A stretch of 63,631 nt of DNA, counting the filler, from Nemertoderma westbladi (lineage: Eukaryota; Animalia; Xenacoelomorpha): NCBI GenBank assembly GCA_032718475.1. It is 4 parts of 4 records of this genome, joined end to end, with 100 filler letters (N's around TTAATTAATTAA, not from the genome) between each part and the next. Parts side by side here need not be neighbours in the genome. Positions count along the whole stretch, not along the records: positions 21,986 to 36,641 come from JAUCBJ010003853.1; 3 more parts are not named here. One strand, written 5' to 3'. This document shows, in pieces, positions 9,809 through 58,061 of this stretch. A program made the position numbers and the translations under genes. Numbering within the stretch: position 1 is the first letter of the stretch; the number at the start of each line of letters is the position of its first letter. The notes beneath the pieces are model-generated. The model was not told the DNA's origin, did not search any database, and saw only the letters and a program-made list of their open reading frames with translations.

Positions 9809-10801
9809 GGTCTGACGAATCTGTACAAAAAGTACAAAAAAATACAAAATAGTACAATATAGTACAAAAGAGTACAATAAAGTGCAAAAATTGTACAAAG
9901 GAGTGCAAAAATAGCACAAAAGAGTGCAAATTCAACGGCATCGAAATATGCGCCGCTACAGTGTCAGTGTCAATAGCCGGCCTTGGTTCTGTGCTCAAGT
10001 ATGAAATTATTGACAGAACTTTATGATTCATGTAAATTTTGACTGGCATACAGTAGAGAAGTAGGCTACTGTTCGTATAATACAATATAATTCAATCAGT
10101 CAATACATACTGCTGTACCGTACTGACATACATATTACGCAGTGCTGCAGTGCAGCAGTGGGTAGTAGATATAAACTCGTATAGGTATAACTGACTGACT
10201 GAGACTTAAAATTTAGGTCATAGTCTTAAAGTACCGAGCCCATACTGCCATATACTGATATACTGAAGGATAGACTCTATGCTATGTATAGATAGACTAC
10301 GTTGTAAGTTATGTAGGCTATGCAGGGGGATGCAGCTATGTATGTATGCCTCTATCTAGCTGTCTAGAAACTTTATTGCTGTATTGAGCTCCCTCTACAG
10401 CTCTACAAATTTGTGGGCTTGGGGCCGTTTTTTGTGTTTTTCGAACACAAAAAGCTGCATTAAAACTCATAAGATTGTATTGTCATGTTCTCTGAGTCTC
10501 TGACAGTCTGACTGCTAGATCAGCCCCCCGCTCAATGCGCGGCCTGCCCCACAATGCTTTATTTTATTTTGCACATCATGTGCGCGGGTGCGCCCCTCTA
10601 CCTGTCTACTGCTCTAGACAGCTAGACGATTTGAACTACACTGGCAGACTGGTATACACGTTTTGCAAGCGTTTCTCACTCGTTTGTACTCTTTTGTACT
10701 AATTTTGCACTTTTTTGTACTAATTTTGCACTTTATTGTAGGCTACTATATTGTACTATTTTGTATTTTTTTGTACTTCTTTGTACAGATTCGTCGGAAC
10801 C
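9809..10801. mobile_element. Non-autonomous TIR element with ~125-bp arms made of ~11-bp subrepeats
   Basis: GGTCTGACGAATCTGTACA... versus ...TGTACAGATTCGTCGGAACC; AGTACAAAA-type repeats inverted at both ends. Confidence 0.8.
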
Positions 10802-12775: not shown

Positions 12776-13342
12776 CAAGGCTTTTCTTCTTGGATTACCT
12801 TTCAAAATATTTTACGAAATTCTACCAAAAATATTTTATTGTGCTATTTTCGCCGGGAAAAAGGAAAATCAATGCAATCCTATTCTATGGGTTACTTCTT
12901 TCCATAGGCAATAGGGAGAAAAGTATTCCTTTTTGTCCCGATTTGGTGGTATATTCGAGGGGAAAAGTAACAATTTAAGAATAAAAGTATGTATAAAATA
13001 TAATAATTAAAAATGTTGCTGTAAATAGAACTGTCAGACTGTTATATAGAACTGTTAAATAGAAAAATTAAAAATGTGGCAGCAATATGTTTCTGACTTC
13101 CTCACACACAGAACCGTGTTGCGCTATGTTGCTGAGTGTGTCCAGCCACTTATTCTGTCCTCCTCACACGGTTCAACTTTTCTTGCAGAAACAAAAGTTA
13201 CCGGTAGGTACCGTACTTCGTGTGAGGAAGGGGATGGCTTTATTTATTATAGTAGGCCATGGTGCGGTGCACCTAGTCTGTCTGTTGTGTACCTACTTTG
13301 TAAGTCTGTTTGCAGATAGTAGCCCAACCACCACCAGCCAAT

Positions 13343-14200
13343 ATGACTTCCCCGCTGATCGCCCTTAGGGGCACCGAGGGCCTCTCTATGCTGACCTTCA
13401 CCATGGACCCACCGGGAGTTCATGTCAACCGGGAATTCACCCCGGACGAAAGTACCAAATCCAAATGCATGGCTTTCAGTCCGGATGGCAACTACTTCGC
13501 TTGGGCTAACGGATTCCACGTGTGCGTGGTGGCGACCCCTTCGTGCCGAGCGGTTCTTCGTCTCGAGCAACCGAGGTGCACCCAACTGTGCTTCTCGCCT
13601 ACCGGAAAGCTGCTAGTCAGCTGGGAACCCTATATACCGAACAAAGAGAACCCCAGAGAAAGCGACAACCTGTTCATCTGGGACCTCGAGACTGGACAAC
13701 TGGTTCGCTCCTTCGCACACCGACGGACCGACAATTGGGCCCCGCAATGGTCAGCGGACGAGTCTGTCTGCGCGCGTAACCCAAGCAACGAGGTCACCTT
13801 TTATGAGAACGGCAACTTCCAACGCCTCGCCCATAAACTCCACCTCCAGAAGGTGACCGAGTTCGCTATCAGTCCCGGTCCCGTGCCTCGAGTAGCCGCC
13901 TTCGTCGCCGGCGCCAAGGGCGCTCCGTGCTTCGTACGGGTCTACCAGTACCCAGAGCTGGGAGGCCCCGCGGCCGCTATCGCATCCAAGAGTTTCTTCA
14001 AGGCGGACGCAGTGCGACTGTACTGGAACCATCAGGGAACCGCGCTCGTTGTGCTCGGACAGGCGGACGTGGACAAGTCCGGGGGTTCCTACTACGGGGA
14101 ACAAACTCTTCATTATCTCGGCATAGACGGCACTTCTAACATAGTGACTCTGAGTAAACAAGGCCCTATATATGATGTGGTATGGAGCCCCGCTGCTCAG
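13343..14200 (+). CDS. EIF2A: Eukaryotic translation initiation factor 2A, coding exon 1
   Basis: MTSPLIALRGTEGL..., FSPDGNYFAW, KSFFKAD, DKSGGSYYGEQTLHYL, LSKQGPIYDVVWSP; phase-0 donor CAG|GTAATG at 14200/14201. Confidence 0.96.
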
Positions 14201-14451
14201 GTAATGCTTTATTATAAATAGTTTACGTAAAAAGGCGACCGTAAATTTTAACATCAACTCAAGTATTTTTGTTTTTTTGTTATTGGAGGTTTCTTAGATG
14301 GTTTCATTATCTGTATGTTTACCCCCCCCCCCCCCCCCCCCCCTCCCTCCATTGGATTACATAGATGTTTGACTATAGATTAGTGTTTAAACGTGATACC
14401 GTTTTTCGGGATCGGGATTACCATTTGGAATTAAATTCCTTAAAGTTAATA

Positions 14452-14930
14452 GGGTAAACTGGGGTAATTTGGGACAAATTTCGCGTTCAACAGACGTTCT
14501 CCAGTCTGCTGCTAGAGGGCGAAATGTTGAATGAAAGGCCTTCTTCCATTTCCATGATTTTAATTTGTTAACCATAAGCCTGTAAGCTGAATCTTGGCAA
14601 AGTATGTATTAGGCTATAGGCAGATAGGATAGGCCCTACTACAGTACTATACCTACTATATAGGTTATCTGTCATCTCTTCAGTTCTCCAGTCTGCCGCT
14701 AGTAGGCGAAATGTCTGAAAGCGAACACCTTACACTTGCTGGTGACGGCTAGTCTATCCGACATCCCTACATCATTTAAAATAGGCATATAAAGTCTGAA
14801 GCTAAAGTGTAGGCCTATAATTTAAGCAACCCACCAAACCCCACTGCAATTACAGTTAAGAAAATACTTGTCCCAAATTACCCCAGCCTGTCCCAAATTC
14901 CCCCATGTCCCAAATTACCCCAGTTTACCC
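14452..14930. mobile_element. TA-flanked MITE in the eIF2A intron carrying two CTCF-like motifs
   Basis: TIRs GGGTAAACTGGGGTAATTTGGGACA; TA on both flanks. Confidence 0.85.
14506..14708 (+). promoter_or_regulatory. Two tandem CTCF-like motifs (14506-14521 and 14693-14708)
   Basis: CTGCTGCTAGAGGGCG and CTGCCGCTAGTAGGCG resemble the CCASYAGRKGGC core. Confidence 0.5.
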
Positions 14931-15577
14931 TACTATATTTATTGCTGGATGTTTTACTGAAATAAAAATTCGATATAATCAAAATATTTCCGTTTTGCTG
15001 CAACTATTTATTAGATATTCAAAAAATTTACTTCACTATTTATACTCCGGGATCCCGTTATTCACTAGATATAAGGTGCCCTTTCCCTTTTTACATATCC
15101 AACTTGCGTCGCTGAACTTAAAAGTTTTGTAAGCGGCACAGGTTCCTGGCGCGTCCCAACCAAAAGTATAAAAAGGCTGTTGTAACTTGTAATCACTATC
15201 CAGATTGAACAAATTGCGGCCCTTCTTTCTCCTGTGTTTTTTTCTATTACATTTGCCATGTTACTGTTTCTTACCTGTTTGCACCAAATTCAACCGCACC
15301 AAATTCAACCAGACTATGGCCTCTTCATTGTTTCGGTTTTTGCCTACTTGACCCGGTGTCACTAACATATCGTGAGAGCATTACATTACCAGTTAAAAAA
15401 ATCGAATTCGAATGTTGGAATATTTCAATACTATTTAAACTATTTCTGCTCGCTTCGCTCTCATTTCTCTTTATCACATTTATTTATCTTATTGTTGTTT
15501 TCTATTCAAAATAACATCATAGCACTGCGTTATGTACCGTTATATCGACGTAATTAACCACATTTATTATCCTTTAG

Positions 15578-16537
15578 GAGTACTGCGTTATTTACGGTTA
15601 TATGCCGGCCAAGGCGTCGGTATTTAACGCCAAATCGGAGGTCGTGTTCGACTTCGGTACGGGACCTCGGAACAGCGCCTATTACAACCCCCAGGGGGCG
15701 CTGCTCCTACTGGCTGGGTTCGGGAACCTTCGCGGCGGGTTGGAGGTCTGGGACCGCGCGGCCAACCGGTTGCTAGGCAACGCTGTAGCCGAGGATACAA
15801 CCGTGTTGACCTGGTGTCCCGACGGGTTCCACTTCATAACCGCGACGACATCGCCGCGTCTCCGAGTCGGGAACGGGTTCCGCGTGTGGAACGCGTTCGG
15901 GGAACTCCTCCATCAGGAATCATACGGGAAACATTTCGACGCGATGCTGTTCGATATCCGCTGGCAGCCTCGGCCCTCGGCTGGGTTCGAACCCCCGGCC
16001 TCGAGGTCGAGTAAACCGACCAGTAAACCGGCGGCCCCGAGTTCCTACGTTCCGCCGCATCTACGGGAATCATCGGGGTCCGCTAAGCCGCTCAACCTGC
16101 ACGAGTACGAGGCCCCCCAGGGGGCGCCACAGGGAGCCACCCAGGGGGCGCCCCACGCTGGGATGTCCAAGAGCGCGTTGAAGAATAAAAAACGTCGCGA
16201 AAATAAACTCAAAACCAAAGCGGAGGGCGATTCCGCCGTGACGTCATCTAAGAGTATGACGTCATCGTGTAGGTCTGCCGAACAGTCTGACGCTTTGTTT
16301 ATGGCGGGGCATATAGTCCCTGCGCGCGCCCCCCTACCAACTCCAGTTGCCACGCAACCGGATAACGCAAAGAAAATAAAAAATATTAGGAAGAAACTCG
16401 TCCAGATCGAATCGCTAAAGGAAAAACACGAGAAAGGAGAAAATCTGGAGAAAAATCAGCTGGATAAAATAAACTCCGAGGTGGAATTATTGGAGGAATT
16501 GCGCAATCTAGAGATAAATGGGAATCCTTGGGAATAA
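15578..16537 (+). CDS. EIF2A: eIF2A coding exon 2 (spliced product ~605 aa)
   Basis: Acceptor CCTTTAG| then EYCVIYGYMPAKA, FDFGTGPRN, AGFGNLRG, ATTSPRLRVGNG, YVPPHLR, LEKNQLDKI; TAA stop. Confidence 0.96.
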   Translation, partial: EYCVIYGYMPAKASVFNAKSEVVFDFGTGPRNSAYYNPQGALLLLAGFGNLRGGLEVWDRAANRLLGNAVAEDTTVLTWCPDGFHFITATTSPRLRVGNGFRVWNAFGELLHQESYGKHFDAMLFDIRWQPRPSAGFEPPASRSSKPTSKPAAPSSYVPPHLRESSGSAKPLNLHEYEAPQGAPQGATQGAPHAGMSKSALKNKKRRENKLKTKAEGDSAVTSSKSMTSSCRSAEQSDALFMAGHIVPARAPLPTPVATQPDNAKKIKNIRKKLVQIESLKEKHEKGENLEKNQLDKINSEVELLEELRNLEINGNPWE

Positions 16538-21885: not shown

Positions 21886-21985
21886 NNNNNNNNNNNNNNN
21901 NNNNNNNNNNNNNNNNNNNNNNNNNNNNNTTAATTAATTAANNNNNNNNNNNNNNNNNNNNNNNNNNNNNNNNNNNNNNNNNNNN
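21886..21985. other. Artificial contig spacer (N44-TTAATTAATTAA-N44)
   Basis: Identical 100-nt stop-in-all-frames linker occurs three times. Confidence 0.97.
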
Positions 21986-22117
21986 TAGGCCTGTGATTCT
22001 ACATTTTTTGTAGTTTTGGGGTGTAAGAATGTTGTGTTTACCTTTGAACTGATACTTGGCAGACATACTACACGATTGCGGCATTAGATGCGTGTTTGTA
22101 AGGAGGTTAACCACGCG

Positions 22118-22146
22118 GCAGTTCCCCAGTCTGCCGCTAAGGGGCG
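22118..22146 (+). promoter_or_regulatory. CTCF-like site with upstream module
   Basis: GCAGTTCC, 5-nt spacer, CTGCCGCTAAGGGGCG. Confidence 0.5.
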
Positions 22147-22249
22147 AAATGTCTGAAAGTGATAACCTTCTGTTTTGTTTCCTTTGAGTGATTAGTTGAA
22201 GGCCAATTTATGATAGCCCACTCCATAGCGAATAACTTATTCATCCGTC

Positions 22250-22335
22250 CTACTAGCTCAGTATACACACCGGGCAGATGATAACACCTGAAGTTTGAAA
22301 CCTAGGTATCGGGTTCGAGCCCGAATAGAGTCGGT
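22250..22335 (+). repeat. Degenerate tRNA-derived (SINE-head-like) sequence
   Basis: A-box-like TAGCTCAGT and B-box GGTTCGAGCCC; no intact cloverleaf. Confidence 0.4.
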
Positions 22336-23238
22336 TGATATTTTTGATGGAGAGCATTATCATATTGTTCTATTACATTATATATATTTTCTTTCGTTTT
22401 TTTTTATAATCCTATGGATGTGATACTTATCATTGTAGATTTCGACTGGGAGAGTAAACAAAAAGAGGTGGATGTTTACAGGGTGGGGTGCTCTCCCTTG
22501 GGAGTTACTGTCGCGCCCTCCCAGCCTTATTATAGGTAACAGCCAAGAGAGAGAGAGACGAGCCTTCGGGTTTCACACGTTCACCGTACCTTCCTTAGTT
22601 TTCTCGAATTACTGTACTATTCAACTCCCGATGCTGCCTTAACTCAATGTTATATAATTTAGTGTTCTCGAATATTTATTACGTAACTAGAGAGCCGCTT
22701 AACTACATAAACTAATATTGGGTATTGAGTTCCGTTTTGGAGTACGTCTTGCAGACACTAAAGTTGCAATAACTTTTGAATGTGTAAGTGGATTTGGTCA
22801 AATTACGTACAAAACATTTCTATATAGATGTTCTATCAACACATGTAATAAAGTTTATGAATTTCCACCAATAATTAATATTTTCTCATTATTTTCATTT
22901 TTTTAAACCTATGTCTTACATGGAAAAATTTCTCCTACCATTCAATATTCGGGCTAAAATGTAACAATTTATAAGAGTATCAACTATTTACTACTAAATA
23001 TTTATTTATTTTTTACTAATACTAACTAATAATTGTTATTGATAGAGTTAGCATTCATGTTGATATCAATTATGTAGATAGCGGGACAATGAATGGTAAA
23101 TGTATAGCCATTCATTGTCCCGCTATCTACTTAAATAATTGTTATTTTTTGCGAGTTTGCCTATCTACAGGGTTAACTGTATTTATTGTGACTTGTATGA
23201 ATGAATCATTAATTGGTTGACATTTCTTCTTCATGTAG

Positions 23239-23447
23239 ATGTTTGTCTAGTTGTAATGAAGTCGTCGCCACATACAAAGTTCAAGAATTCGCCATCGAAG
23301 TGGCTATACTGTTACCTAGCAACCATCCGTTGGGTAACATCTCGGTGGAAACGCGACAGAAAGTTGGCGTTCCGGCCAGCCAATGGCGTTCCTGGATTCT
23401 TCAGATGACGATGTTTCTTCGCAACCAAAATGGATCGATTCTAGAAG
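23239..23447 (+). CDS. LTN1: E3 ubiquitin ligase listerin, penultimate coding exon (RWD region)
   Basis: EVVATYKVQEFAIEVAILLPSNHPLG...VGVPASQWRSWILQMTMFLRNQNGSILE; phase-1 donor matches the next acceptor; 5' boundary approximate. Confidence 0.92.
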
Positions 23448-24021
23448 GTGTGAATCACTTTATTGAGCTGATTGAGTTGTTTTGATAACTTATATTAATA
23501 ATTATTATTTAATATTAAATATTATTTCATTTTTGAATAAATAATAATGTATATAATTTGTTAAGGGAGAAGGAGTTATTTTATTTCCAAGTAGTACACG
23601 TCATTTTACAACTAAAAATTATATTCTTGCTTCTTAAAAATTGAGGATATTTCATTGGTGACTTTCAACGTGACCATCAAGTGATTGGCTGCGGAAACTA
23701 AATGTGGTTACATATTTTAAGAAAATGGTTTTGTTGCGAATTTGTACTAAAACTATAACTAAAGCTTCAACTATATTTTTGGAAACTGGAACTGAAATAA
23801 ACATTTTTATTCGTACTGAAACTTGAACTGAAACCAAAACAAGTAGATATTTCGTTTCAGTTAGCAGCACTAAGGTGCTATAATTATTACATCCCCCCCC
23901 CCACCCCCCTACGTATGCATGCATTACTTTTTCTTCCCCTAAAAGGATATATCACTTTTTCTAAGTATTTATGACTTGTATATTAATTCGAAGGATTTAT
24001 TATTACTTTTTCTCCTTCTAG

Positions 24022-24230
24022 GTATACACCTGTGGCGCAACAACCTGGACAAACGGTTTTCCGGCGTAGAGGACTGCTACATATGCTACTCGGTTATCCA
24101 TGGGTTCAACTACTCGCTACCCAAACACGCTTGCAGAACCTGCCACAAACGTTTCCACAACTCGTGTCTCTACAAGTGGTTCAGCACTAGTAACAATGCA
24201 TCATGTCCCCTCTGCAGAAATCCATTTTAG
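24022..24230 (+). CDS. LTN1: Listerin last exon (C-terminal RING)
   Basis: [69 protein letters not shown]. Confidence 0.96.
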
Positions 24231-24607
24231 TTAGCCATTTTCTAACTCAGATAAAAACCGTCTGTTCATGATGGACTTTGGTGCCATAAAGTGAAACTTG
24301 ATAATATATGTTCAGGAGACGGGAACCAAAATTTGGTTTTTGGGATCTTCACAATGTTATTTTTATTTTTTTAGATATGTAAATTATAGGTGGTATAATA
24401 TTATATTAGATTGAAAGGGAAGGGTTATCATGGTGAAATAATCGCTGTTTTACATCATGCCATCAAAGGGACCGCAATTTTGTAACAGTTATGATACTGC
24501 TAAGTGCTAACTACCAGGTAGGAAAAAATCCCAAGATTTATTAGGATATCATCAGTTTACCTCAGTTAGAATGTTGGAGCAGAGTTTGGTACGTGATTGA
24601 CTCGTTA

Positions 24608-26395
24608 GGTGTAGATCTTTGTATAGACCATGATGTAGACCTTGGTGTAGACATTGGTATAGACATTGGTGTAGACATTGGTGTAGACATGGTGTATACC
24701 GTGGTGTAGACCTTGGTGTAGCTGTAGACCTTGGTGTAGACCTTGGTGTAGACATGGTGTATACCGTGGTGTAGACCTTGGTGTAGCTGTAGACCTTGGT
24801 GTAGACCTTGGTGTAGACCTTGGTGTAGACCTTGATGTAGACCTTGGTGTAGACCTTGGTGTAGACATTGGTGTAGACATGGTGTATACCGTGGTGTAGA
24901 CCTTGGCGTAGCTGTAGACCTTGGTGTAGACCTTGGTGTAGACATGGTGTATACCGTGGTGTAGACCTTGGTGTAGATCTTTGTATAGACATTGGTGTAG
25001 ACCTTGGTGTAGACCTTGGTGTAGACATTGGTGTAGACCTTGGTGTAGATCTTGGTGTAGACCTTGGTGTAGACCTTGGTGTAGACCTTGGTGTAGACCT
25101 TGGTGTAGACATGGTGTATTCTGTGGTGTAGACCTTGGTGTAGACCTTGGTGTAGACATTGGTGTAGACATGGTGTATACCGTGGTGTAGACCTTGGTGT
25201 AGACATTGGTGTAGACATGGTGTATACCGTGGTGTAGACCTTGGCGTAGCTGTAGACCTTGGTGTAGACCTTGGTGTAGACATGGTGTATACTGTGGTGT
25301 AGACCTTGGTGTAGACCTTGGTGTAGACCTTGGTGTAGACATTGGTGTAGACCTTGGTGTAGATCTTGGTGTAGACCTTGGTGTAGACCTTGGTGTAGAC
25401 CTTGGTGTAGATCTTGGTGTAGACCTTGGTGTAGACCTTGGTGTAGACCTTGGTGTAGACATGGTGTATACTGTGGTGTAGACCTTGGTGTAGACCTTGC
25501 TGTAGACCTTGGTGTAGACCTTGGTGTAGATCTTTGTATAGACATTGGTGTAGACCTTGGTGTAGACCTTGGTGTAGACATTGGTGTAGACCTTGGTGTA
25601 GACCTTGGTGTAGACCTTGGTGTAGACCTTGGTGTAGCTGTAGACCTTGGTGTAGATCTTGGTGTAGACCTTGGTGTAGACCTTGGTGTAGACCTTGGTG
25701 TAGCTGTAGACCTTGGTGTAGATCTTGGTGTAGACCTTGGTGTAGACCTTGGTGTAGACCTTGGTGTAGACATTGGTGTAGACCTTGGTGTAGACATGGT
25801 GTATACCGTGGTGTAGACCTTGGTGTAGACCTTGGTGTAGATCTTGGTGTAGACCTTGGTGTAGACCTTGGTGTAGACCTTGGTGTAGACCTTGGTGTAG
25901 ACCTTGGTGTAGCTGTAGACCTTGGTGTAGATCTTGGTGTAGACCTTGGTGTAGACCTTGGTGTAGACCTTGGTGTAGACCTTGGTGTAACTGTAGACCT
26001 TGGTGTAGACCTTGGTGTAGACCTTGGTGTAGACCTTGGTGTAGACATTGGTGTAGACCTTGGTGTAGACATGGTGTATACCGTGGTGTAGACCTTGGTG
26101 TAGACCTTGGTGTAGATCTTGGTGTAGACCTTGGTGTATACCTTGGTGTAGACCTTGGTATAGACCTTGGTGTAGACCTTGGTGTAGACCTTGGTGTAGA
26201 CCTTGGTGTAGACCTTGGTGTAGACCTTGGTGTAGACATTGGTGTATACCTTGGTGTAGACCTTGGTGTAGACCTTGGTGTAGCTGTAGACCTTGGTGTA
26301 GATCTTGGTGTAGACCTTGGTGTAGACCTTGGTGTAGACCTTGGTGTAGACCTTGGTGTAGACATTGGTGTATACCTTGGTGTAGACATTGGTGT
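24608..26395. repeat. 12-bp satellite (CCTTGGTGTAGA)n with variant units, ~1.8 kb
   Basis: Visible array; stop-free in all three minus frames (STPR/LHQG/YTKV). Confidence 0.97.
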
Positions 26396-27345
26396 TTTTT
26401 TGATGTTAAGTTTGCAGTTGGCTGACTGAGTAAATCCATTTCCAAATTTGACAAATATTAATTCTTACAATTGCCGAAGAGTCAAGGTTCCATAAAATGT
26501 TCCATTCGTTGTTAATTATAAACGGCTACCAATTAAAATCCCTAAATTTATGAAAATTTTACCAAAAAAAATTATATTAGGCTACACCAAATTAAATAAA
26601 TGTGACCCCAAAAAAAATTATTCAACACCAAATAAATAAAGTCACCCCAAATAAAATTATTCAAACACCAAAATAAATTTTTCATCACCAAAATCAACTA
26701 TTCAATTCCAAAATAAATAAATGCCTCCCAAAACCAATTTTTCTCACCAAAATAAATTACAAAACCCCCTAAATATATACATTTTCCCCCAAAATAATTA
26801 CAAATTTTACCAAAACAAATACATTTACGCCCAAAATAAATACATTTTCTCCCAAAACAAATACATTTTCGCCCAAAACAAATAGGAGGGGGGGGGGGGG
26901 GGGGGGGTTGAATGGGTCTATTTTTTTTATATGACTTTTTTCTGCTTTTGATCATTCATTATGAAATAAAAACATTATCTAAAGTAACATTGTATTATTC
27001 TAGTTTCTGAATTTATAAGAATCGACAGTAGAGTACTATTCTATAGAAAGATTTTTAGTTTTTTTTTTTTAAAGATTTTTTTTCAGTTTTTAGAAGTAAT
27101 GAATCGTCGGGAACAATGGGTGAAGTGTGGGGTTAAATGGGTGTTATGTTGAATCTTTGGCAAAATTAGCTATATATTGTGGGATTTAAAGCGGGTTGAA
27201 TGGATCGTTGAAAAGCAGAACAAAATTTGCAAAAATTTGATATATAGATTGTATACATTTTAACTTATATTTTGTCAAAATGTAAGTTCAAAATATTAAA
27301 TTTAATATTAAGAATGTTCTCCTAAATAAGAGTCCTAAATATTAT

Positions 27346-28301
27346 TTAAAAGTTCACGGCAGGAACAATCAAGGTGGTAGGTAGCTCTTCTTCTCCGAAG
27401 GTGTTTATTTCAAAGCGAAACGTGCGTTGCACACGTTTAGTATCTCCTGCCGCAACTGGTATGTTTAACTTTCTCCTAATCTCCGAGAATGAATGACAAC
27501 CATACTCCGGTGGATCCTTTAGTACAACCGTATCACTAACTTCAATCTTGTTGCAAGCTTTTACACGCGATGCATAATGTACATTAATCTCCATGTTATC
27601 ATTATTTACCTCAATAACCTTAGAAACATAATTCTTTGACCCTCCACGACTTCCGGCCACCTCGACTATCCAGTCCCCCACCATTAGGCTTGAAGTTAAT
27701 TCCGTCAGTATATGTTGCTTATTAGTTCAAGTTTCCCTCTAAAATCAATATCCATCGCTTACAGGGCCTATCGATCTACAGTGGCTTTAAATTCCCGTCA
27801 GTTTTTTTTAATCATGATAGACCCGTTTTACAAATTGATTGTTTCTCTTCGTTTAAAACGCTCCATGATACACTACTATATATGAAACGATAGCTTGGTA
27901 AATGGGGAATCTCAACAATCCATTCCTCAACGTCCCACATTAACCAGATTATCAAATGCTAACATATTATAGGTTAATAAAAAGTAAATTTATTAGACTA
28001 CTAGAAACAATTAAATTATTGTGTGGGGCTCAAGTATGGGCGTTGGACTTGCGTTCTCACAATATGGATACGATTGAAGATCGCAGATTGTCTCATGTTC
28101 TTCATAATCTTCATCGACCGAACCCTCATATCCAAAAAGTTCCCTTTCGTACTCCCTTTGATAGGCATCGACATCACCTCGGCTATCATTGGAATAAATA
28201 ACTGTACCCTCATATATAATGCCGGGGTCACCGGGGTACCTGACCCGACCTCCTATTTGAATAATTCCAGCAACAACTTTACTAGAGCAATAGGCTGCCA
28301 C
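27346..28301 (-). pseudogene. Probable DNA-transposon ORF remnant
   Basis: VGDWIVE...NYVSKVIEV...EINVHY...SEIRRKLNIP resembles the small C-terminal domain of many invertebrate DNA-transposon proteins; no catalytic DDE core seen. Confidence 0.45.
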
Positions 28302-29184
28302 TGGAGAGCCAAAGGCTCGACAGAGTCTTATGAGGAATAAATAATGCAGCGATACTTATAAATAATTAACGGAACTTAGCAAACCAACATAAACACCAAA
28401 GTAAAACCTCAGAACGTCACCTTCAAGGCAGAACCCCCTAAGTCAATTTTTGTAGTTCTGAGATAATCGATAAAAACTGTTTATTTTTTAGAGAGATGCC
28501 TCAGTTTACTTGTTATTGTGTTTTTTGATAACTAAATAAATATAGAATTCATATAACTAAACTTTCAATTTGATTTAGAATTACCTTTGAAATATATTTC
28601 GGTTTTTTTGTAAAAATTCTGACTTATGGTGTTTAGCCAAAACAAAGGGGAACACCATTTTCTGGTATTATCCCGTAACTATACGATAGTTGCGGGGTAT
28701 TGCCTAGAAAACAAGGTATCCTCAATTTGGCAAAACACCATAAGTACGAATTTTTACAAAAAACACGCAAAATATATCAAATAATAGCCAAGGCGTATCG
28801 TACGTCCTTAATAATTTAGTGCGTAGTGCGCACGTAATACATGTGCGCATTTGTTATTAGCTAATACGTGCTATCTAACATGTTAACTAGCACATGATCA
28901 GGTGTTAGTATTACCTGTAAACGCAATAATAACAAATAATCACATACAATATGGCTAACACACTTGCGCACATGTTGGAAATTTTTGAATTCAAAGTTCT
29001 AAAGGGCTCCATAAGTTTTTGATATTTTGGTATTAATTGCTTCTAAAATAAGTACGGGACTGTAGTTAGAATCATGTATTAATACAAATTGAATAAAATG
29101 TAGCCAAATGCAGAACTACAGTATAAGAACAAAATTTAGATTCAAGAAAGCGGAACTCTAAGTACAAAATATAGCCATGGGTGG

Positions 29185-30389
29185 TGTAAAGGCTTTTGCG
29201 GATCTAGCTAGTCATTTTCCCCGCAAAGTACTCTGTAGGTGTTTTAGCGGACATAAAAAGCTGTTTTCTTACTGTGTAGGTGTTTTAGTGGACATAAAAA
29301 GCTATTTTTTCTGTATGTGTACTTTAGCGGACATAACAAGCTATTTTATGCCGCAATACGCCAAAATACTCTTAATACAGTGTAGTTCAGATGACGACAT
29401 CTATCAGCTGATATGTCGACGTGGAGCTTTTGGCTTTCTTTGTTTAGGCTCACTCACTCGACCAATCAGAGCGATTTTCATTTTATTTGCACAGAAGCCT
29501 CCGGGAAATCGCGCAATGCATTATGGTTTTTGTTTACCTTTTTTCCTGAGCCCAGAACATCGGCTGTGGAATTATTCTGTGTTTCAGACTTTAGCCAAAC
29601 ATTAGAACAGCTTTGATTATAGAAACGTATAACTGTTATCAGCACATAATTCAATACATCATAATTCATAACTCAAATACTATACATACCTTTCACCGCA
29701 TTATTTTACTGCTATTTACTGTCGGTTATTAATTGTTATCAGTTGATGGAATGTTGTTATATTTGGAGAATATCGATAAATAATCAGAAAACCCCAATCT
29801 TCTTGATATACTGAAGGTTAGAAAGACCGGTTACATATCTGCATATAGCAATTGCGACTTACCTTATAGTGGTTTTGGAGTGAATTGAATGCTATTTCAT
29901 AGACCCTACATGTGTCAGTTGCTGTTCTCCTTATATATGATCAAATTTAGTGAAGGTCGGCAGATCAGTGTGCAGCAGTGTGCGGTAGTGTGCATGAATG
30001 TGATAGATAACAAAGCATTTCCTAAAGAATGCGCTTTATACATAAATCATTAGCCATCCCGTTGTGTTTAGTGTAAGTCATAACTCTGTTTACATACTTA
30101 GAGCGCCACGTCCTAAAGGAACTGTTAATATTTCCCGAAAGTGAATAATATTTGTCAGAGATTATATATTAACGATCAGTCGAATAGTACAGTGGGCCTA
30201 CACCGCAATAAGGTCAGAGCATCCGAATCCAGTCTCCCTTAACCGTGGGTGAATGATCGCGCATAGGCTGGCTTCGGCTAATGTAGCTTTATATGTATCA
30301 AATACTTGTTATAGGCTAAAGTCGATTTATAACCTAGAAGACACCTAAATTTGGCAGGTTAAACTGCTAAAGGTCTAAAAGCGCGAACA
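29185..30389 (+). repeat. 5' LTR of Bel/Pao copy B (1205 bp)
   Basis: Homology to 58834-60061 starts exactly at TG and ends exactly at CA. Confidence 0.92.
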
Positions 30390-31995
30390 ATAACAGTTAT
30401 TCTTTCTTTATTGCAACGTAGGCAATAAAGGCAAAAGTTCCGGTCGACCGGTAACCAGTAGGCCTAACTACCTAACCACCCGAACCGGTACTTACAGCAG
30501 TACAGGTACATCAGTATTATTCGATTTTGATAATTATATACCGGTAGGTCTTGATATTTAATCAGGGACTGCAGCCCTGGCATTATTTCTGTCAGTTTTA
30601 TTTATCTGTAAGTTAATATTGAGCAGAAGGCGTGTAAGCCTGCTCAGATTGTATAAATAATTTGTAGGCTCGCAACATTCACAACCCCAAGTTTATTCCT
30701 ACAGTAATTGTGCTTGTTATACATACCGTTACAGTTAAATTAACCCCGGTACTACATCAGGACTGTTTGGCGTAGGTAAAGACTGGTGATTTTATGCTCT
30801 GGTCACTCCGGCAGATACCGTGGTTCTTTTAGCTGTACAAGTATTTTTAACTGCTCATTATTTGTTGTATAAGTACTTATACCTAATTTAGGGTTTAGTG
30901 TACAGTGCTTTCCGAAGGTAATTAGTGTGTAGGCAGTATATTTGTGTTGTAAAGTGGTTAATAGGCACGTTAGCTATAGTAGGCTGCGGTAATTAACTTC
31001 TAGGTAGGAACACTCCGGGTACATAACATAGTACTTATAGCGCTACGGCTATAAGTCGTCAGACAGTGGTATTTTCCTATCTAGACAACGCAATATATTT
31101 ACTACTGCTTTATTATTTTCAAATACCGAAGTATCCTGTCCGTTTGTAATAACCAGATATTCTAACTCCTTGTTAGGCTGGTTTGTAGATTCCCTGTAAA
31201 ATTACCTCTAAAAATTTGTACGTGTAATTTTTGTGTTTATTTAGAGATTGTAATCTCACCCCGTATTGTACGAAATTTGTAGTAATAAGTAACATAGGCA
31301 AGTAGAATTACTTGTTTTAGTGTCCAACAAGTAGCGCTTCACTGAAAGCGTACAGCTTCTGTGTAGTGACTCCTTACCAGAAATAATAACATTTATTTCA
31401 AATATTGACAAAACCCATTACAGGGTATATATATATATATTATAAATCAACTCAAACCGATTTATAAAATAGTAGGCCTGTCATACAATAATTAGGTCTT
31501 AATATCAGTTGGACTACTGCTTAAATAACGGTAATAAAGTAAAGTAAAGTAACTAAGTAACCCTAAAAATTCAGAAATTCAATTATTCTAAAATAATTGA
31601 TGTACCGGTATTTACGATAGGCTTATTATATTTATTTCTATAAATTTAAGCTGAAATTATTTACCGGTATTCTGTAATTAATTCTAGTCTATCATTATAC
31701 TTATATATACTATAAGTGTAAGCTGTATACCGGTATTCACGTTAGGCTTAGTATATATCTATATATTTGCGCTGAAATTATATACCGGCATTCTGTGACG
31801 AACCCTAATATCCGATCCGTAATAATACTTATATATGCTATAAGTGTATACCGGTATTCTAATATATTGTATATATATCACGTTACACTGAGTAACGATA
31901 TCGGTAATTAATTACTAGGCTAACAGTTGATACTGAATTACTAGACTTGCTTTAACTGTAATTATAGCAGTAGGCATTCAACTGTACAAACAAAC

Positions 31996-34900
31996 ATGTC
32001 TGACACAAAGCAAAACCTGTCAGACAGTCTCCTAGATACAACCATCTGCGACCCAGATAGGAGTGCGGAACGTTTGAGACCGAAGTTCAACTCACCTCCT
32101 ACTGTAAGAAAGATCATCCCTCCAGTAGTAGTATCAGACCCTAGGCTAGTCCAACACCATAGGTCTATCATAGGCACTCGGGCTCAAGTCAAGCGGGATC
32201 AAGAAGCAGCTGTCAAACAGCATCAACACCCTAGCCGAGAACTTAATTCTCAGCGGCCCGATAGCTCCAGTAGTTCGGATACTGTAGAGCTGACACCCGA
32301 GCGCGGAGCAAAGATGGCAGATGCGGTTTATTCGGATCCCCTTCTCATTCTTCCTGCAGCCGGACTCACTAGGGTATTGATTGCGGTGGAGGAACACCAA
32401 ATTGATTGGGCGAGAAGTAAGCGATTGACCAAGGATAGTTATGCGGGATACACAAGGGAGGAACTGAAGTCTATTGTTGAGTCGCAATGGAACTTCCCCG
32501 GACCCGGACTCCCGTTTAACTTATCGGAAGCTGCCTGGGAAGACTTACACAGGATGGGAGAGACAAAAGACACTAGTGATCCAGCTGTGTGGAAGAGGTC
32601 GGCAGCAGGATATGTACAGAGATTCTTCAGCTCTTTGGAGCGATTAGAGGAACAACTGTTTCAACAACCCCAAGGACCTCAAGAGCAGGGAGAGCTGCTT
32701 TATCAAGTTCGAGAAAGAATTCTAAGAATCAGACTAATCCTATCTGCCTTTGAAGAAGCTTCGAAAAGAAGACAAGACACGTCGTTGCAAGTTGCCGTAA
32801 AGACTTGGTTCCAGCGGGTGAGTCTCAAGGTTCAAGGAACGGCCCAGTGGAAATTTCAGCTGGCTGAGCGCTCAACCCACGGAGAATCAACAGACGCTAC
32901 CTTTTCTCAAGTGGAAAGCGAAGCGACAGCAGAGAAACCGCAGAAGAAGGACGCTATTGACATCTATCTGTCAGACTATCAACGATTTCTAGGTGATGAA
33001 GAGTTGAGGAGAAGGCTGGCTGGACTTCGTCCTAATAGTGAAGGAGCCAAGCTTGTGTTGGACGCAATAGATGCAGAAATGTTAGCTGCGAATCAAGCTA
33101 AATTTGATGAAAGCATCCGCATCGCTAGGGTCCAAGAAGAACAGGTAAAGAAAAAACGTATAGAAGACAGAAAGACAGCAGCAGTGGCAGCGGCAGAAGT
33201 TGAAAGAAAAGCGGCAGCGGCAGAGGCAGAGGCTGAAAGGAAAGCGGCAATGGCAGCGGCAGAAGTGGAAAGGAAAGCGGCAATGGCAGCGGTAGAAGCG
33301 GAAAGAAAGCGAGCAGCGGCAGAACCGGAAAGAAAAGCGGCAGAGGCAGTGGCAGAAGCAGAACGGAGAGCATCTGAAGAGACCACCCAACTAGAGTTGG
33401 AAAATCTTCAAGAGAAGCAAGACTACATAAATAAACAGTTAACAGCTAGTCAGATGCAGATGATAAGTCGATCTACTCCCAAAAGACAGGGATTTACATC
33501 ATCTGATGAAGGCGATACCACCGAACCTGAAGGCGGAGGAAATAGATCTCGTCTAAGCAGGCGTAGAAGAACGCCCCACCGTCAGAAATTGCTTAATTTG
33601 CCCCCAGCTGTGAGAAGGCAACTAGCTAGCACAGACTTAGGTAGTACAGAACCCACAGACCAAATTATTAGAGTAGAAAGACTCCCTACTATAGTGGATG
33701 AACCTGAAATAATTAGGCCAGTTCTCGAAGCCACTCCCTCTGTAATAGAGACCACTGTACTTCCAGAATCGAACTATAAATTCCCTTTGCACAGTACTAA
33801 ACTACCTGTATCCCGTGGGACAGTTCCTCAGTCAACTACGGTCCTGGACGCTGAGCGAGACATTAACAATTTGTTGCCCATCGTCCCTCGTCTACCCGCT
33901 ACTATGTTGGCGGCTCCCGCTTCGGCGGTTGAGTGGGTGTATGAGCGATGGCTGGGGATGGATATTCTCCTCGGGAAGATGGAGGAGAATCAGACTCCCT
34001 CCTCCCAACAGGTCCGAGAGTTGGAGGGGACTGTTTAACAGTTAAAGGGAACAATAAGAGAAAGTAAGTTAGAATTACAGGAAGTGCAGCAGAGTATCGC
34101 GTTAGAACGCGATAAGTTAGTAAATTTACAAAAGGGTATACCAACACCCCCTGTAACAATGTGTCAACCTGTTAGGTCTGAAGTATTTCATGCGCAAGGT
34201 GTGGAGCCTACACGCATCTATACTGCTAGTGAAGTAGAAACTCCTATAGTAAACCCTATTAAAGGTAATTATAAACCTGTTGACAATGATATTCCATATA
34301 GACCTGATAATAATCTGAGAAATTTATATACCGATAACTCGATATTAAATAATACGATGGCCCAAGAAAGTTTTACGCGTCAAATGGCTAGAACCGAAGC
34401 ACGTCAAGCGGTAAAGGTGGGAGAGATCGTCAAGTTCAATGGAGATGAGATGAAATGGTTACCTTTTAATGAATATTACAAAGATAACATACAGAACTCT
34501 GTGCTATCGAATGGAGAGAAACTTAGATTCCTCATCGAGTGCTTGGAAGGATCTCCCAAGTTAATGGCGTTAAAGTTTATTGGACATCCAGATGGATTAA
34601 GACAAGTTTGGAATACATTAAACATCAGGTATGGTAATAGGAATAACATAGCTAGGTATTTGTATGCAAAATTGGTAGCGCCCCGAAAGTTCATTAGCAG
34701 CGGGATTATAGAGTTTTCCGATGAGATTCAGGAGATCTGTAGACAATTAGATTGGCTAGGTAAGTCTCATGAATATCAGAGTTCTATGGTTATTGGAGCC
34801 GTAGCATCTACTTTGCCAAAGGGTGGAGTAGGTACACGCTGGGATAAGAAAGTGTTATATATGATGGAACAACAACGACGAGACCCTACCATGGCTGATC

Positions 34901-35190
34901 TCATGTCATTCTTAGATGGAGAGGTAAAATTACAGCTCCTAAAGCAGTCCAGAGAGAAGACACCGGAAAATAAGGTAAGTGAGAAACCCGTTTCTAGGAG
35001 AAAGGTAACACCAGTGTGTTATACAGACGACGGCGAAAGCCAGGCTTCTCAAGAGGAGGACAGCGGGAAAGACACTGCAAGAGCTTACTATGTCAACAAA
35101 GTGCCTAAAGACATAAGTAAATTTAAGTCTCGAACCAATGACAGGAGAGAACAGGTAAGAAAAACTCCTCCTACTGCTCCTTGCCTGATC
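31996..35190 (+). pseudogene. gag: Bel/Pao gag, copy B (>1060 codons, one in-frame TAA at 34036-34038)
   Basis: ORFs 31996-34038 and 34084-35301 share a frame; copy A has Gln at the stop position; DUF1759-like IVKFNGDEMKWLPF...LSNGEKLRFLIECLEG...LNIRYGN. Confidence 0.88.
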
Positions 35191-35216
35191 AAATATTTCG
35201 GGCTCAGACAGGCTAT

Positions 35217-35870
35217 AGGGGCTGTTGCGCTGTCAGTCAGAGAGGTAACAGCCCATGGGGTAAAGATTTACCCATTGGGCGCTAACTATCAGATAGTCTG
35301 ATACCAACTGTCAGACAGTCTTTTTCAACTATCAGATAGATGATCGCCCAGTTACAAGTTGCCCGATAGTTGTATTTTTTAAATCCGTATGTAATAATGC
35401 AGTAATGCAGTAATGTACACTGCAATGCAATACCGGTAATGTCAATGCAGCAATGTCCAACCAAACAATGCGTTGAGTGTTATCGGACCAGCCTCCGAGA
35501 AATGTTAGGCTAACGGCACCTCGCTCTGTCGCATCAGTTTTTGTAGTGGTCAGGTGGTCTAGTTCCAGGCTACCCGAATCCGTTAGGCCTAGTGCATGAT
35601 ATAGAATCAGCACATCCTGACATCTGTGCAACTCCTGACCTCACGTGAGCATTTTACAGATGGTGGTCTAATTTATATGGTCTTGTACCGCGAAACCGTG
35701 TATTATTCTGTTATTTACAAATGTAGGCTAAATTTCGGGTCTTGTACCGTGCACAGTACTGGTGGGCCTACACAGCTACTGCTATTTTGCCTAATACTGT
35801 AATACAGGTCCCAGAGGTAAATCCTTACCCCACAGGCTGTTACCTCTCTGACTGACAGCGCAACAGCCCT
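35217..35870. mobile_element. MITE with ~55-bp TIRs next to the gag truncation
   Basis: GGGCTGTTGCGCTGTCAGTCAGAGAGGTAACAGCC... is inverted at 35815-35870. Confidence 0.85.
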
Positions 35871-36133
35871 CTCTCCAGACAGTGGCGGGCAAATGTATAA
35901 ACTACAAAGTGAACCGGTCTGCCGGTACAGAACTGTCAGTACCGTACTGCAAATCACCAAATTATGGAACATGTGCTGTCTGCACCTAAAGTGTACTTGC
36001 ACGTACTGACGAACAGCAATAGTTCAACACGTTCAGCGTCAAACAAAGTCTTACCTTCCTCTGATGTGGGGGCTGTATGGCAAGGGGGCATGCTTCGAAC
36101 GGGCGCGCGGGCGAATCTAATGTGGGCGCTTAG

Positions 36134-36460
36134 CGTGTTGTGGACACGTCCTTCTTCGTCTGCGTCGTGGTCGAGTCGGACGGACGGCAGGCGCCGTGCG
36201 TTCTCGTCGCGAGCGCTTCCCATCTCCACATCGTACACCGCGGCCGCGTCGACGCGGCCGAACTCCGCAGCAGTAGACCCCTCGTCGACGTCGCCAAGAT
36301 CACCTCGAAGAAACGCCAACCCAATCTCATTACCTTTAAGTACGCCGACAAGGAGGGCCGGATAGTCGCCGTTGATAGACTCTACATACCGACGCCGCAA
36401 CGCGTTACCCAGGTGATGACGGAACTTATACTCACAGCGGTCGAGTCTTCCACTTCCTAA
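36134..36460 (+). CDS. TBC1D23: TBC1D23-like C-terminal (PH-like) domain, terminal exon or gene fragment
   Basis: VAKITSKKRQPNLITFKY...VDRLYIP matches the TBC1D23 signature I recall (VVKITSKKKHPELITFKY...ERYLIP); GC-rich like host exons; possible acceptor TTAG at 36133. Confidence 0.8.
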   Translation, partial: RVVDTSFFVCVVVESDGRQAPCVLVASASHLHIVHRGRVDAAELRSSRPLVDVAKITSKKRQPNLITFKYADKEGRIVAVDRLYIPTPQRVTQVMTELILTAVESSTS

Positions 36461-36641
36461 CACCCCCCCCCCCCCCCCCCCCCCCCCTTCACATGTCTAT
36501 AATAATATATTCCACTTATATTTTTCCTGGATCCAATTATTTTTCGTTATAAATAACTCAAGATTCATATTGCATTACCTATTTATTTTTTTTTTTTTAA
36601 TTTATATGGCCACGTTATTTTATTTATCTCTTATGATATTC

Positions 36642-36741
36642 NNNNNNNNNNNNNNNNNNNNNNNNNNNNNNNNNNNNNNNNNNNNTTAATTAATTAANNN
36701 NNNNNNNNNNNNNNNNNNNNNNNNNNNNNNNNNNNNNNNNN
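36642..36741. other. Artificial contig spacer
   Basis: N44-TTAATTAATTAA-N44. Confidence 0.97.
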
Positions 36742-41652: not shown

Positions 41653-42472
41653 GTAAATATTTAAAATGCTTTAATAATTATATTCGAGTTGCCAGTACTT
41701 TTTTTGGGACAATTCATTCACATATTTTTTGTGTAATTAATTGTGGGGCGAGTCAAAATTGCGAGCCATAAGCGAACTGTTATAATTATACTATGGCCGA
41801 TTTCCAAAAGTCGGGGTGTGTGGGTGTGTGTGTGTGTCAGTGTGTCGGAAGCCAGAATTGTATTGGCGGAAGCCAATAATTAACTGCCTTTTCCTTGAAC
41901 ATAGAGTCCCCTTAGCCAATAAACGCAGATTATTTCTAGCTTTACTTGTCGTCAGAGGCAACCTGCCACTTCCCTTGTCAGATTGCTTTTACCTGCAAAA
42001 TTGATGTTGCACAGCGACTGTTAGCGGTTGTTCGAGCAATTGAACTAGCCATTTAGTATAATTATAATTGTTCGCTAAGACGGCTTGCAGCTTTTGCACG
42101 AAGGCCCCACTGTGTTTAATTATCTATAAACATTAAAATTTGATTGTACTGTAGTTGTAATGGAAATATAAAAGGAAAGTATAATTTTGAAAGAAAAATG
42201 TTTTTAAATAATAGCTAACTTGCAATATCACTTGCTAACCTGAAAATTAGAAGCTATTAATGTTTATAGATAATTAAACAATTTATTACACATAACATTT
42301 TGTTTATCTCATAAGTAGCTACATTTTTTATTAATTTATCACAAAATAATAGGCAAATAATATGAATAGCTACGTAATTGAATATTAATATTATATAATA
42401 TTTTTAATTAAATTAAAATAATTAATAATATTATATAATAAAATGAATTAATTGAGACTGAATGAATAAATA

Positions 42473-44686
42473 CGGGTTCTGGAGGCGTTGCGCAATACCT
42501 TCGGTAAATTAACGAGACTATTATTTTTGGATGGAGGACCATATTAGACGTCAGAACACAGTTGGTGATCGGTATAGCTAATTTGCATTCTAGAACTACA
42601 GGCCAAAAACAAGCTAGCTAGCCGACCCCCTACCTAACTCTATGTTGGGCCCTCTGGCTGAATATAAATGCAATCTATTTTTTCAAATGAACATTTTTCT
42701 TATAGGGGGAAGACCGGCGATTATTTTAAGTACAAATATATAGCCACTTTTATTTTTTAAATGCGATAAATTTACATGAGAACAAGATACTTTCACTTTT
42801 TTTAAGAAACCAACATTTACATTAACTGCAATAAATGGTAGCTACTTTGGTTTCACACGTTCAAACATGTATCAAAATTTGCGCGAATTATTTCTGCATT
42901 CACCCATGCAACTCATTTTGGATGAGTACTAGATCCTCCTAGTCAATTAGCCCGATTATTATCGGGGAAACGTAATCAGAGAATATTCAGAGAAAGGATA
43001 CTCTCTGACATTTGGAAATATTTACTACAGTTACTAAGGTAACTAACTATTCTGTGAACGGCACTTCCTTACATGTATTACCTGCGTTGTGCAGTTTCTA
43101 GGCGACTGTATACATTAAAACACGCAGGCACAATCAAGTCGTTTTAAAGCAGCCCCCTTAAGCAACCTACCTGTGTTTTTTTAAATAAGAGTTAGAAGTT
43201 TATGTACCGCCGATTTTCTTAAAATGTTAGCTATTTAATACTTATATTCACACAGCGATCGTATGTGAAGGCCTTCCACCGGGGTGGTGGTACTGTACTA
43301 GTGTGTTTTGTGCGAGCACACCACCCACCCCCCCCCCCCCCCCCCCCCCAATTTGTTATACTAGCTAGTTTTTTATTACTTCTTATAGTCCGGTATATAT
43401 CAGTTTTCTGCCTTATAAATAAGATGTGTAAAAGATATGAATTTACTATACTCCTGTACGTAACAAATTTTGCAGCGGACATCGGTTTGTTAATTATACG
43501 CTGTCTTACAGTACCTAGTGGGTCTGTAATATCCGTTACCTTAATGGTGGAACCCCCAATTCTACTATCCAAAAACAGAGATCTACAAGAGTTTGTACAC
43601 GGACATTTAATAGTATTTTTACCATCCTACACGCCTTCCAATGTTGATATGTTACCTAACAGCAAACTATATAAGATATTACTTTTCCTTTAATACTTTC
43701 GATTTACTGATATTCCGACTTACTTATATTGTAATATATTAATATTAATTGATTGCATGGCATAATTGGTACGTTTCGTTTATGGCAAATTAAATTCCCT
43801 CTGGTAAACAAAAAACGAGAATATTTTGTTGCTGTTAAATAAATAATTACAATTATATTGAACTAATGACAATTTATTTTAGTAAATATTATTTTCCTAA
43901 TTGCTAAGAATATTGTAACTTTGCTTCGGTTTTTGTCACAACATAATAAACTACTGTTGTAGAAAAGTTTGAAAGCGAAAGTATAAATTCTGACTCTCAG
44001 AATATCAGTTCCATCTTTGTATTGCTCAGTTTATGTATTTTTGTATAATACAGTAAAAAACAAATAATATAATGTAAGGATTCGTCTACACTGGTACACA
44101 ACATACAGTAGCCTACAGTAGTTGCCTAGTTGTAGTAAATATTTCCAAATGTCAGAGAGTATACTTTCTCTGAATATTCTCTGATTATCGTTTCCCCGAT
44201 AATAATCGGGCTAATTGACTAGGAGGATTTAGTACTCATCCAAAATGAGTTGCATGGGTGAATGCAGAAATAATTCGCGCAAATTTTGATACATGTTTGA
44301 ACGTGTTAAACAAAGTAGCTACATTTTATTGCAGTTAATGTAAATGTTGGTTTCTTAAAAAAAGTGAAAGTATTTTGTTCTCATGTAAATTGATCGCATT
44401 TAAAAAATAAAAGTGGCGATATATTTGTATTTAATTTAATCGCCGGTCTTCCCTCTATAAGAAAAATGTCCATTTGAAAAAATTGATTGCATTTATATTC
44501 AGCCAGAGGGCCCGACATAGAGTTAGGTAGGGGTCGGCTAGCTAGCTTGTTTTTGGCCTGTTGTTCTAGAATGCAAATTAGCTATACCGATCACCAACTG
44601 TGTTCTGACGTCTAATATGGTCCTCCATCCAAAAATAATAGTCTCGTTAATTTACCGAAGGTATTGCGCAACGCCGCCAGAACCCG
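42473..44686. mobile_element. TA-flanked foldback element with ~557-bp near-identical TIRs (Tc1/mariner-type, non-autonomous)
   Basis: 42473-43029 is the reverse complement of 44131-44686; TA on both sides; no transposase ORF. Confidence 0.92.
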
Positions 44687-45150
44687 TACTAATAACAATA
44701 GATTAATGAAATAGATTTTCAACTCTTTTTCGAATGCTTATTTTTCCTTCTTCGTTTGTTCTCAGAATTTTCTTCTTTATCTTTTTGGTTTGATTGTGTT
44801 CCTTCCTTGTCCTTCTTTTTCTATCAGACTTGTAATCAGATAAAGTTAATCCTCATCTGGGCAGTTAATAGTAAAAATGAGAAATATACACCCCCGTACG
44901 GGGTAAATTTAATCTTTAATACATTAGAATGACATTTATCATATTATAGTTAAATTTAAATTAAAATCAGAGTATATAAAATATTAGGATTGTATAAGTA
45001 AATTTTAAATTTAAAATATAAAATAGGTTCTAAAATTCTAAAAAGATACTTTATTCACTTAGAGTTCCCCAGAGCCGAGAGAGCTGGACAGGACCCACAG
45101 CTAAATAAGTGATATCTCTCACTCGCACTGCCTCCACAGTATTTACAGTA

Positions 45151-56481: not shown

Positions 56482-56581
56482 NNNNNNNNNNNNNNNNNNN
56501 NNNNNNNNNNNNNNNNNNNNNNNNNTTAATTAATTAANNNNNNNNNNNNNNNNNNNNNNNNNNNNNNNNNNNNNNNNNNNN
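56482..56581. other. Artificial contig spacer
   Basis: N44-TTAATTAATTAA-N44. Confidence 0.97.
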
Positions 56582-56855
56582 AACTGTTAATATTCCCGAA
56601 GGTAAATAATATTGTCAGAGATTATATAATACTGTCAGTCGAATAATACATTAGGCTTACATAGCAATAAAATTAAACCGTCGAACCCAATCTCCCGGGA
56701 ATATCCAGCGGGTGAATGGTCGCGCACGGATTGGTTTCGACTAGTGTAGTGAATCTAATACTTGTCATACAGTCATAGACTAAAAAACTGATTTAATATC
56801 TAGAAGACATCTTAATTTGGTGGGTTAAACTGCCAAAGGTCTGAAAGCGCGAACA
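56582..56855 (+). repeat. 3' end of a copy-A-type LTR inserted into an RTE LINE
   Basis: Near-identical to the reverse complement of 4362-4626; ends GCGCGAACA directly before RT codons APLLFVIVLDY. Confidence 0.92.
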
Positions 56856-57743: not shown

Positions 57744-57766
57744 AACTCAAATGACTCTATTTCACT

Positions 57767-58057: not shown

Positions 58058-58061
58058 ACCA

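Follow-up and report, generated by a model that had tools for sequence, protein, structure and literature searches.

Self-priming of reverse transcription has been described in the Tf1/sushi group of LTR retrotransposons and predicted in Tcn1 and in the TAR lineage of copia, according to the covered sections of PMC6317226, PMC4600332, PMC5341516, PMC2864245, PMC6934838, PMC3601003 and PMC5443660. In Tf1, the RNA's initial 11 bases pair with the PBS, and RNase H cleaves between bases 11 and 12 (PMC7175516, sections covered). Tf1 also requires a U5-IR-like stem-loop, as the title of a cited reference states. The covered sections of PMC13524379 and PMC3286476 deal with tRNA PBSs of gypsy elements. 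Belpaoviridae are described by ICTV as host-tRNA primed, with an 18-nt PBS that pairs with host tRNA-Arg or tRNA-Gly, and their replication is termed poorly understood (PMC8742986). The main text of a Bel/Pao survey (PMC3118150) and of the Sinbad paper (PMC554778), in the portions covered, mentions neither PBS nor tRNA. The literature searched contained no paper on self-priming in Bel/Pao, in agreement with the original prediction, which knew of no such report; Repbase entries and subscription journals lie outside this coverage, and a prior report is possible.

Here, we analyze a window of 63,631 nt, filler included, from Nemertoderma westbladi (GCA_032718475.1), in which 4 parts of 4 records are joined; positions 21,986-36,641 are from JAUCBJ010003853.1. 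The joins consist of 100-nt N runs (21886-21985, 36642-36741 and 56482-56581) with a central stop-codon spacer. One LTR family is present as four pieces, namely A, B, C and a 3' fragment, D. The 5' LTR of copy B is located on the plus strand at 29185-30389 (1205 nt, TG..CA), and that of copy A on the minus strand at 5599-4362 (1238 nt, TG..CA). They share 70% identity and are regarded as 5' LTRs because a leader and gag come after each. LTR C (58834-60061, plus strand, 1228 nt) is 81% identical to B and has no leader after it, as in a 3' or solo LTR. Fragment D (56582-56855, plus strand), the 3' part of an LTR, is followed by a non-LTR RT fragment. Since it is 94.5% identical to A, A belongs to a subfamily and is not a lone copy. 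Fragment D and the end of B's region adjoin N runs.

The family is very abundant, since 3,210-10,394 read-set contigs cover 29150-30700 in three DNA runs from two samples. Some of these contigs agree with B up to 29641 and then part from it, and in run X4 one loose end carries B's 11 letters (the PBS position described below) ahead of another leader. These are small hints that the PBS type of B is common to more copies. The lack of variants in 30390-30400 was rejected as a sign of PBS invariance: the listed rows begin exactly at start+31 and stop at end-31, an edge effect, and variants at 30431-30439 that another contig comparison shows are absent from that listing as well.

Several other features surround these copies. 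The stretch between fragment D and the region preceding LTR C (56856-57740) is a non-LTR retrotransposon RT fragment with a TAG repeat at its end. The region ahead of LTR C (57740-58833) is possibly the 3' internal region of the element and ends in a weak purine tract; a 239-codon ORF upstream of LTR C (57771-58490) had no match in Pfam or in the protein search. Just past the gag of B, an inverted 54-nt pair (35219-35272 and 35816-35869) is likely a DNA-transposon-type insertion. The same probably applies to a 2.2-kb stretch with long inverted arms at 42466-44693. A 232-codon ORF at 53470-54168 has no Pfam match and is possibly a decayed DNA transposon. The window also contains a host eIF2A gene (13304-16537) with few long exons, which is divergent: its identity to the longer proteins searched does not exceed 52%.

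The original prediction held that neither 5' LTR is followed by a TGG-type tRNA PBS and that the PBS position instead pairs with a site in the element's own LTR. Both statements are borne out by the sequence. In copy B, the PBS position at 30390-30400 (plus strand, ATAACAGTTAT) begins flush with the CA of the LTR, has no TGG, and is the exact reverse complement of a putative self-primer stretch at 29629-29639 (plus strand). In copy A, the 12 nt at 4361-4350 (minus strand, sense TTAAAGGATATA) likewise have no TGG and are the exact reverse complement of the 12-nt putative self-primer stretch at 5134-5123 (minus strand). The two self-primer stretches are homologous in the alignment of the LTRs. 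As in Tf1-type elements, the PBS is complementary to the own LTR and flush with the LTR end in both copies. The 18-nt host-tRNA PBS of Bel/Pao is lacking in both, with no TGG after either LTR. A and B differ at 4 of 11 positions (site positions 4, 6, 7 and 11), and the partner matches each change, so that all four are compensatory, as had been claimed. Pairing across the copies fails: the PBS of A finds 4 nt in LTR B, and that of B finds 6 nt in LTR A.

These matches are rare in control sequences. Dinucleotide shuffles of the own LTR contained a match to the 11-mer of B in 14 of 10,000 cases and to the 12-mer of A in 6 of 10,000. Among internal 11-mers, 2 of 4770 in B and 1 of 4339 in A have a complement anywhere in their own LTR. 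The 11-mer of B is an interrupted palindrome, and B alone could therefore equally be read as a one-mismatch direct repeat; for this reason, A carries the argument against the direct-repeat reading. LTR C has a third sequence at the homologous site (near 59314-59326, plus strand), which predicts a third PBS type. A duplex reaching further upstream than the site is not established, as shuffles were as good in 595 of 2000 cases for B and 95 of 2000 for A. The self-complement at the PBS position is real: it is not a product of chance, it covaries, and it is found in a family with a Bel/Pao-type Gag.

The placement of the family comes from gag. In copy B, gag extends on the plus strand from 31945 to about 35185 in a single frame, with an in-frame stop at 34036-34038 and DUF1759 at about 34435-34818. 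It is apparently cut off near 35185, an approximate end, and no pol comes after it. In copy A, gag occupies 1-2219 on the minus strand in two frames (1599-2219 and 3-1598), contains DUF1759, and runs off the window. DUF1759 passes the cut-off in both copies (E 1.6e-11 and 5.1e-11) and is the sole Pfam family found on Gag. The best 150 Gag relatives listed show 22-37% identity with a top E of 2.6e-11 or weaker, and the 19 long ones scanned among them contain DUF1759 in 19 cases and Peptidase_A17, the Pao domain, in 15. No close relative was found by the Gag search of longer proteins and viral contigs. Bel/Pao Gag typically has three Cys/His zinc knuckles. In B, the frame appears to end near the expected beginning of the first knuckle, and A runs off the window. 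The N-terminal part of Gag is long and contains alanine/glutamate-rich, coiled-coil-like repeats in variable number (33170-33370 and 1586-1890).

With lengths of 1205, 1238 and 1228 nt and TG..CA ends, the LTRs agree with the 0.2-1.2 kb of Bel/Pao, at its upper end. The LTR-end pattern had no match in the genome, viral and metagenome contigs searched. The gypsy-type Gag and chromovirus pol of the Tf1/sushi group are not seen; Gag here is of the DUF1759 type and pol is absent in the window. The family is not a member of the Tf1/sushi group. The window contains no pol, and tblastn with the polyproteins of relatives finds gag only. Since pol is absent, Bel/Pao membership is judged from Gag. The Bel/Pao lineage named in the original prediction thus holds for the DUF1759 Gag of both copies; we file the copies as Bel/Pao-type on that protein, and membership as such is unproven.

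How could such a family prime reverse transcription? We consider it likely that it does so in the manner of Tf1, independently of tRNA, with its own RNA after cleavage. Transcription would begin at or upstream of the self-primer stretch, which would then pair with the PBS, about 750 nt away and flanked by two predicted hairpins. Cleavage by a nuclease immediately 3' of the duplex, which in Tf1 is the work of the RNase H of RT, would leave a free 3'-OH as primer. Because the PBS is flush with the CA of the LTR, the 3' end of the paired stretch sits where minus-strand synthesis must start. RT would be supplied by an autonomous copy outside the window. In the retroviral mechanism, plus-strand synthesis uses the primer as template for the PBS. 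The same step here would copy the self-primer back into the PBS and result in perfect covariation, and the four changes would then not be four independent selection events.

Folding predictions are compatible with this scheme. Site and PBS of the same copy form duplexes with energies of -10.1 to -11.6 kcal/mol, whereas pairs exchanged between the copies have +0.9 and -0.5. With a modelled RNA that begins at the site and reaches 30 nt beyond the PBS, all 11 pairs form in the MFE structure of both A and B, with pair probabilities of 0.64-1.0. The predicted long-range pairing is fragile: none of the 11 pairs remains in A or B when the RNA ends at 150 nt past the PBS, and pair probabilities drop to about 0.5 in B and 0.19 in A with 30 nt more upstream. 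An 8-bp hairpin is predicted near the LTR end (30350-30371, plus strand) and is kept in A with one-sided changes; a predicted 9-bp leader hairpin just past the PBS (30406-30430, plus strand) is also kept in A. The hairpins predicted to flank the PBS in both copies have z scores of -2.5 and -1.7, and 3 and 11 of 200 shuffles fold equally well. Such PBS-side stem-loops also occur in tRNA-primed elements. The leader between PBS and gag is about 1.6 kb (30400-32000) and has internal duplications in both copies, with a 288-nt repeat in A (3490-4064).

The start of transcription is the part of the self-priming reading that did not stand in full. The original prediction placed it at about 29629 and 5133 and regarded a conserved CCAAT box about 167 nt upstream of the LTR site as compatible with this. 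That box is indeed present at 29462-29466 (plus strand) and is conserved in LTRs A, B and C, at 167 nt from the self-primer stretch in B and 168 nt in A. The usual distance from CCAAT to a start is 60-100, and 167 nt is long for one. Transcription that begins at the site or upstream of it would fit a CCAAT box at -167. The LTR also contains a rival promoter downstream of the site, composed of a TATA-like box (29932-29939, plus strand), which has the strict consensus in B and C only, not in A, and an Inr-like motif (29965-29970, plus strand). The pair is conserved in position about 300 nt downstream of the self-primer stretch. An apparent start-site hint, a gap at 29410-29669 in run X5, was rejected, since it comes from contigs whose RNA nature is only guessed. 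The covarying complement and the Bel/Pao-type Gag stand, whereas a start exactly at 29629 and 5133 is unsupported; this rival pair lies downstream, and the splice parallels described below need an upstream start. That the putative primer is the RNA's first 11 nt is unsupported, and the start could be upstream of the site.

If the TATA-like/Inr-like pair at 29932-29970 were the promoter, the site would lie in U3. Transcription would then start near 29967 and the site would be present at the 3' end of the RNA only, where its pairing would either close the genome end to end or let the 3' LTR of another packaged RNA serve as the source of a primer. Genome closure of this kind is known from the CYC5/CYC3 pairing of Ty1. 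The conserved positions of the TATA-like (29932) and Inr-like (29965) motifs favor such a start, as does the identity between LTRs A and B, which is 64-87% 3' of 29725 and 39-59% 5' of it. However, pure cyclisation leaves the element without a primer site, as there is no TGG after the LTR; the flush register better suits a primer, and A lacks the strict TATA consensus. We therefore hold a downstream start to be unlikely, though it is the strongest of the competing readings.

A host RNA might prime instead, such as a tRNA fragment, a mitochondrial tRNA or a small RNA, in which case the match in the LTR would be secondary structure, for example a switch that masks the PBS. The family is listed by ICTV as host-tRNA primed (PMC8742986), and half-tRNA priming is known in copia lineages (PMC6317226, sections covered). 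This reading needs two different host RNAs for A and B, each mirrored exactly in the element's own LTR, and ARAGORN finds no tRNA-like gene in the window; we judge it very improbable. We give a similarly small chance to copying at the DNA level, in which the LTR site was placed after the LTR, separately in each lineage, by local conversion or a template switch, and today plays no part in priming. Such copying would produce perfect covariation without selection, and the junctions seen number two; but it must have recurred at the same two positions in subfamilies that are 70% alike, and so abundant a family has replicated with some primer. Chance, from AT-rich sequence and the repeated occurrence of a AACTGTTA-like motif along the LTR, is barely credible: the 11-mer of B is near-palindromic and similar words recur in the LTR, but the 12-mer of A is not palindromic, both matches fall at a homologous site, and the shuffle rates are 0.0006 and 0.0014. 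Both of the window's LTR-leader junctions enter this assessment, one of which, that of B, is palindromic.

Self-priming, which remains the preferred reading, can be compared with the junctions of other Bel/Pao loci. The comparison set contains at least 51 metagenome loci from a Bel/Pao polyprotein alignment scan and 1 locus from a genome scan. Of these, 14 that carry long direct repeats were examined; in 6, the paired repeat fixes the 5' LTR end. A TGG tRNA-type site is at most 7 nt away in all six, and the self-complement is at most 6 nt in all six; thus, self-complement is no generic feature of Bel/Pao junctions. Eight more loci, whose ends are not fixed, have a TGG tRNA-like motif (L007, L009, L013, L014, L037, L044, L045 and L052). 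L001, L011, L012, L018 and L020 provided no usable junction. In two related elements, L047 (5393, 11335 region) and L050 (8854), a second TGG word like a PBS start lies about 60 nt ahead of the true PBS, within the LTR.

Two elements of this set have tRNA-free junctions of another form; in neither does a paired repeat fix the LTR end. L004 has an intact Bel/Pao gag-pol and no TGG site. Its bases 139-148, directly after a CA, are the complement of the splice junction left by a predicted 66-nt GT..AG intron (1-66), and the exon upstream of this intron is visible in the 3' LTR copy (L004:6055-6296). L002, the same element as L003 and L005, also has no TGG site; the stretch concerned is 3447-3913, in which bases 3904-3913, two nt after a CA, pair across the exon joint of a predicted 99-nt LTR intron (3740-3838). 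The sets of junctions with strong splice sites contain 20 and 49 ten-mers and include the post-LTR words of both L004 and L002; 0 of 5897 and 0 of 4818 internal 10-mers fall in these sets, with a splice-strength filter that was chosen after L004 was seen and a scan of many CA positions at three offsets. Loose split matches of 9-11 nt are frequent by chance in L022 and L023, and an 11-nt split match in L019 was rejected since it uses no strong splice sites.

In a tree of RT-RNase H from 24 loci, L004 and L002 are close to each other and beside TGG users, with no printed support for a group of their own. L004 gives the best Gag match among the 52 loci listed (E 7e-13, next 2e-7). It was rejected as kin of the window copies: in the Gag tree, which has a long branch, these copies do not group with L004 and L002, and both elements are treated as parallels rather than shown kin. 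With their predicted introns, they show that more than one Bel/Pao element apparently has a tRNA-free junction and that the RNA need not begin with the paired stretch. A complement lying across a predicted splice junction, as in L004 and L002, requires transcription to begin upstream of the paired stretch; an upstream start is therefore compatible with self-priming. In A and B, no splice junction replaces or extends the match, which is contiguous; a putative splice-donor-like AG/GT (29815-29822, plus strand, donor-like at 29817) is conserved in A, B and C.

From these parallels, we lean slightly towards a wider scheme, in which Bel/Pao dropped tRNA priming, possibly repeatedly, for a primer cut from the element's own leader RNA. 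This primer would be a contiguous LTR stretch in the Nemertoderma family and would arise only after the spliceosome has removed an LTR intron in the L004/L002 clade. If true, self-priming spans three LTR-retrotransposon superfamilies and includes a splicing-gated form. Comparison of the PBS with the own LTR, either contiguous or intron-spanning, offers a simple genome-wide test for elements in which no PBS was found. Self-primed elements are predicted to be overlooked by LTR finders that require a tRNA PBS, and they may escape control by tRNA fragments. A self-primed lineage, if true, would also alter the description of Belpaoviridae as host-tRNA primed.

Among known systems, Belpaoviridae share a metazoan host, TG..CA LTRs and a DUF1759 Gag with A and B, but have a tRNA PBS, which A and B lack. 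Cer7-type BEL elements of C. elegans are reported to encode their own tRNA-like primer RNA and to have a TGG-type PBS; unlike these, A and B have no TGG, and the window contains no tRNA gene according to ARAGORN. Closest in the junction itself are Tf1 and Tf2 of S. pombe, Tj1 of S. japonicus and the Tf1/sushi and Tcn1 groups of Ty3/gypsy. In the sections covered of PMC7175516, PMC4600332 and PMC5341516, these elements, like A and B, have no tRNA PBS, about 11 nt after the 5' LTR that complement the own LTR, and hairpins beside the PBS, which in A and B are predicted. Unlike Tf1, A and B have a Bel/Pao DUF1759 Gag and not a chromovirus one, an LTR of 1.2 kb and a loop of about 750 nt, and the first-11-nt position and cleavage are only putative in them. 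Outside gypsy, self-priming has been predicted from sequence alone in the TAR lineage of Ty1/copia, including Houba and Osr-1 (PMC6317226, sections covered). TAR elements are plant copia, whereas A and B are animal and Bel/Pao-type; TAR is a precedent, from a second superfamily, for changing over to self-priming. Self-priming thus has precedent in two other superfamilies, and what appears new is a Bel/Pao-type family with its signature, in which self-priming is the probable mechanism and tRNA-free priming, if true, arose in a third.
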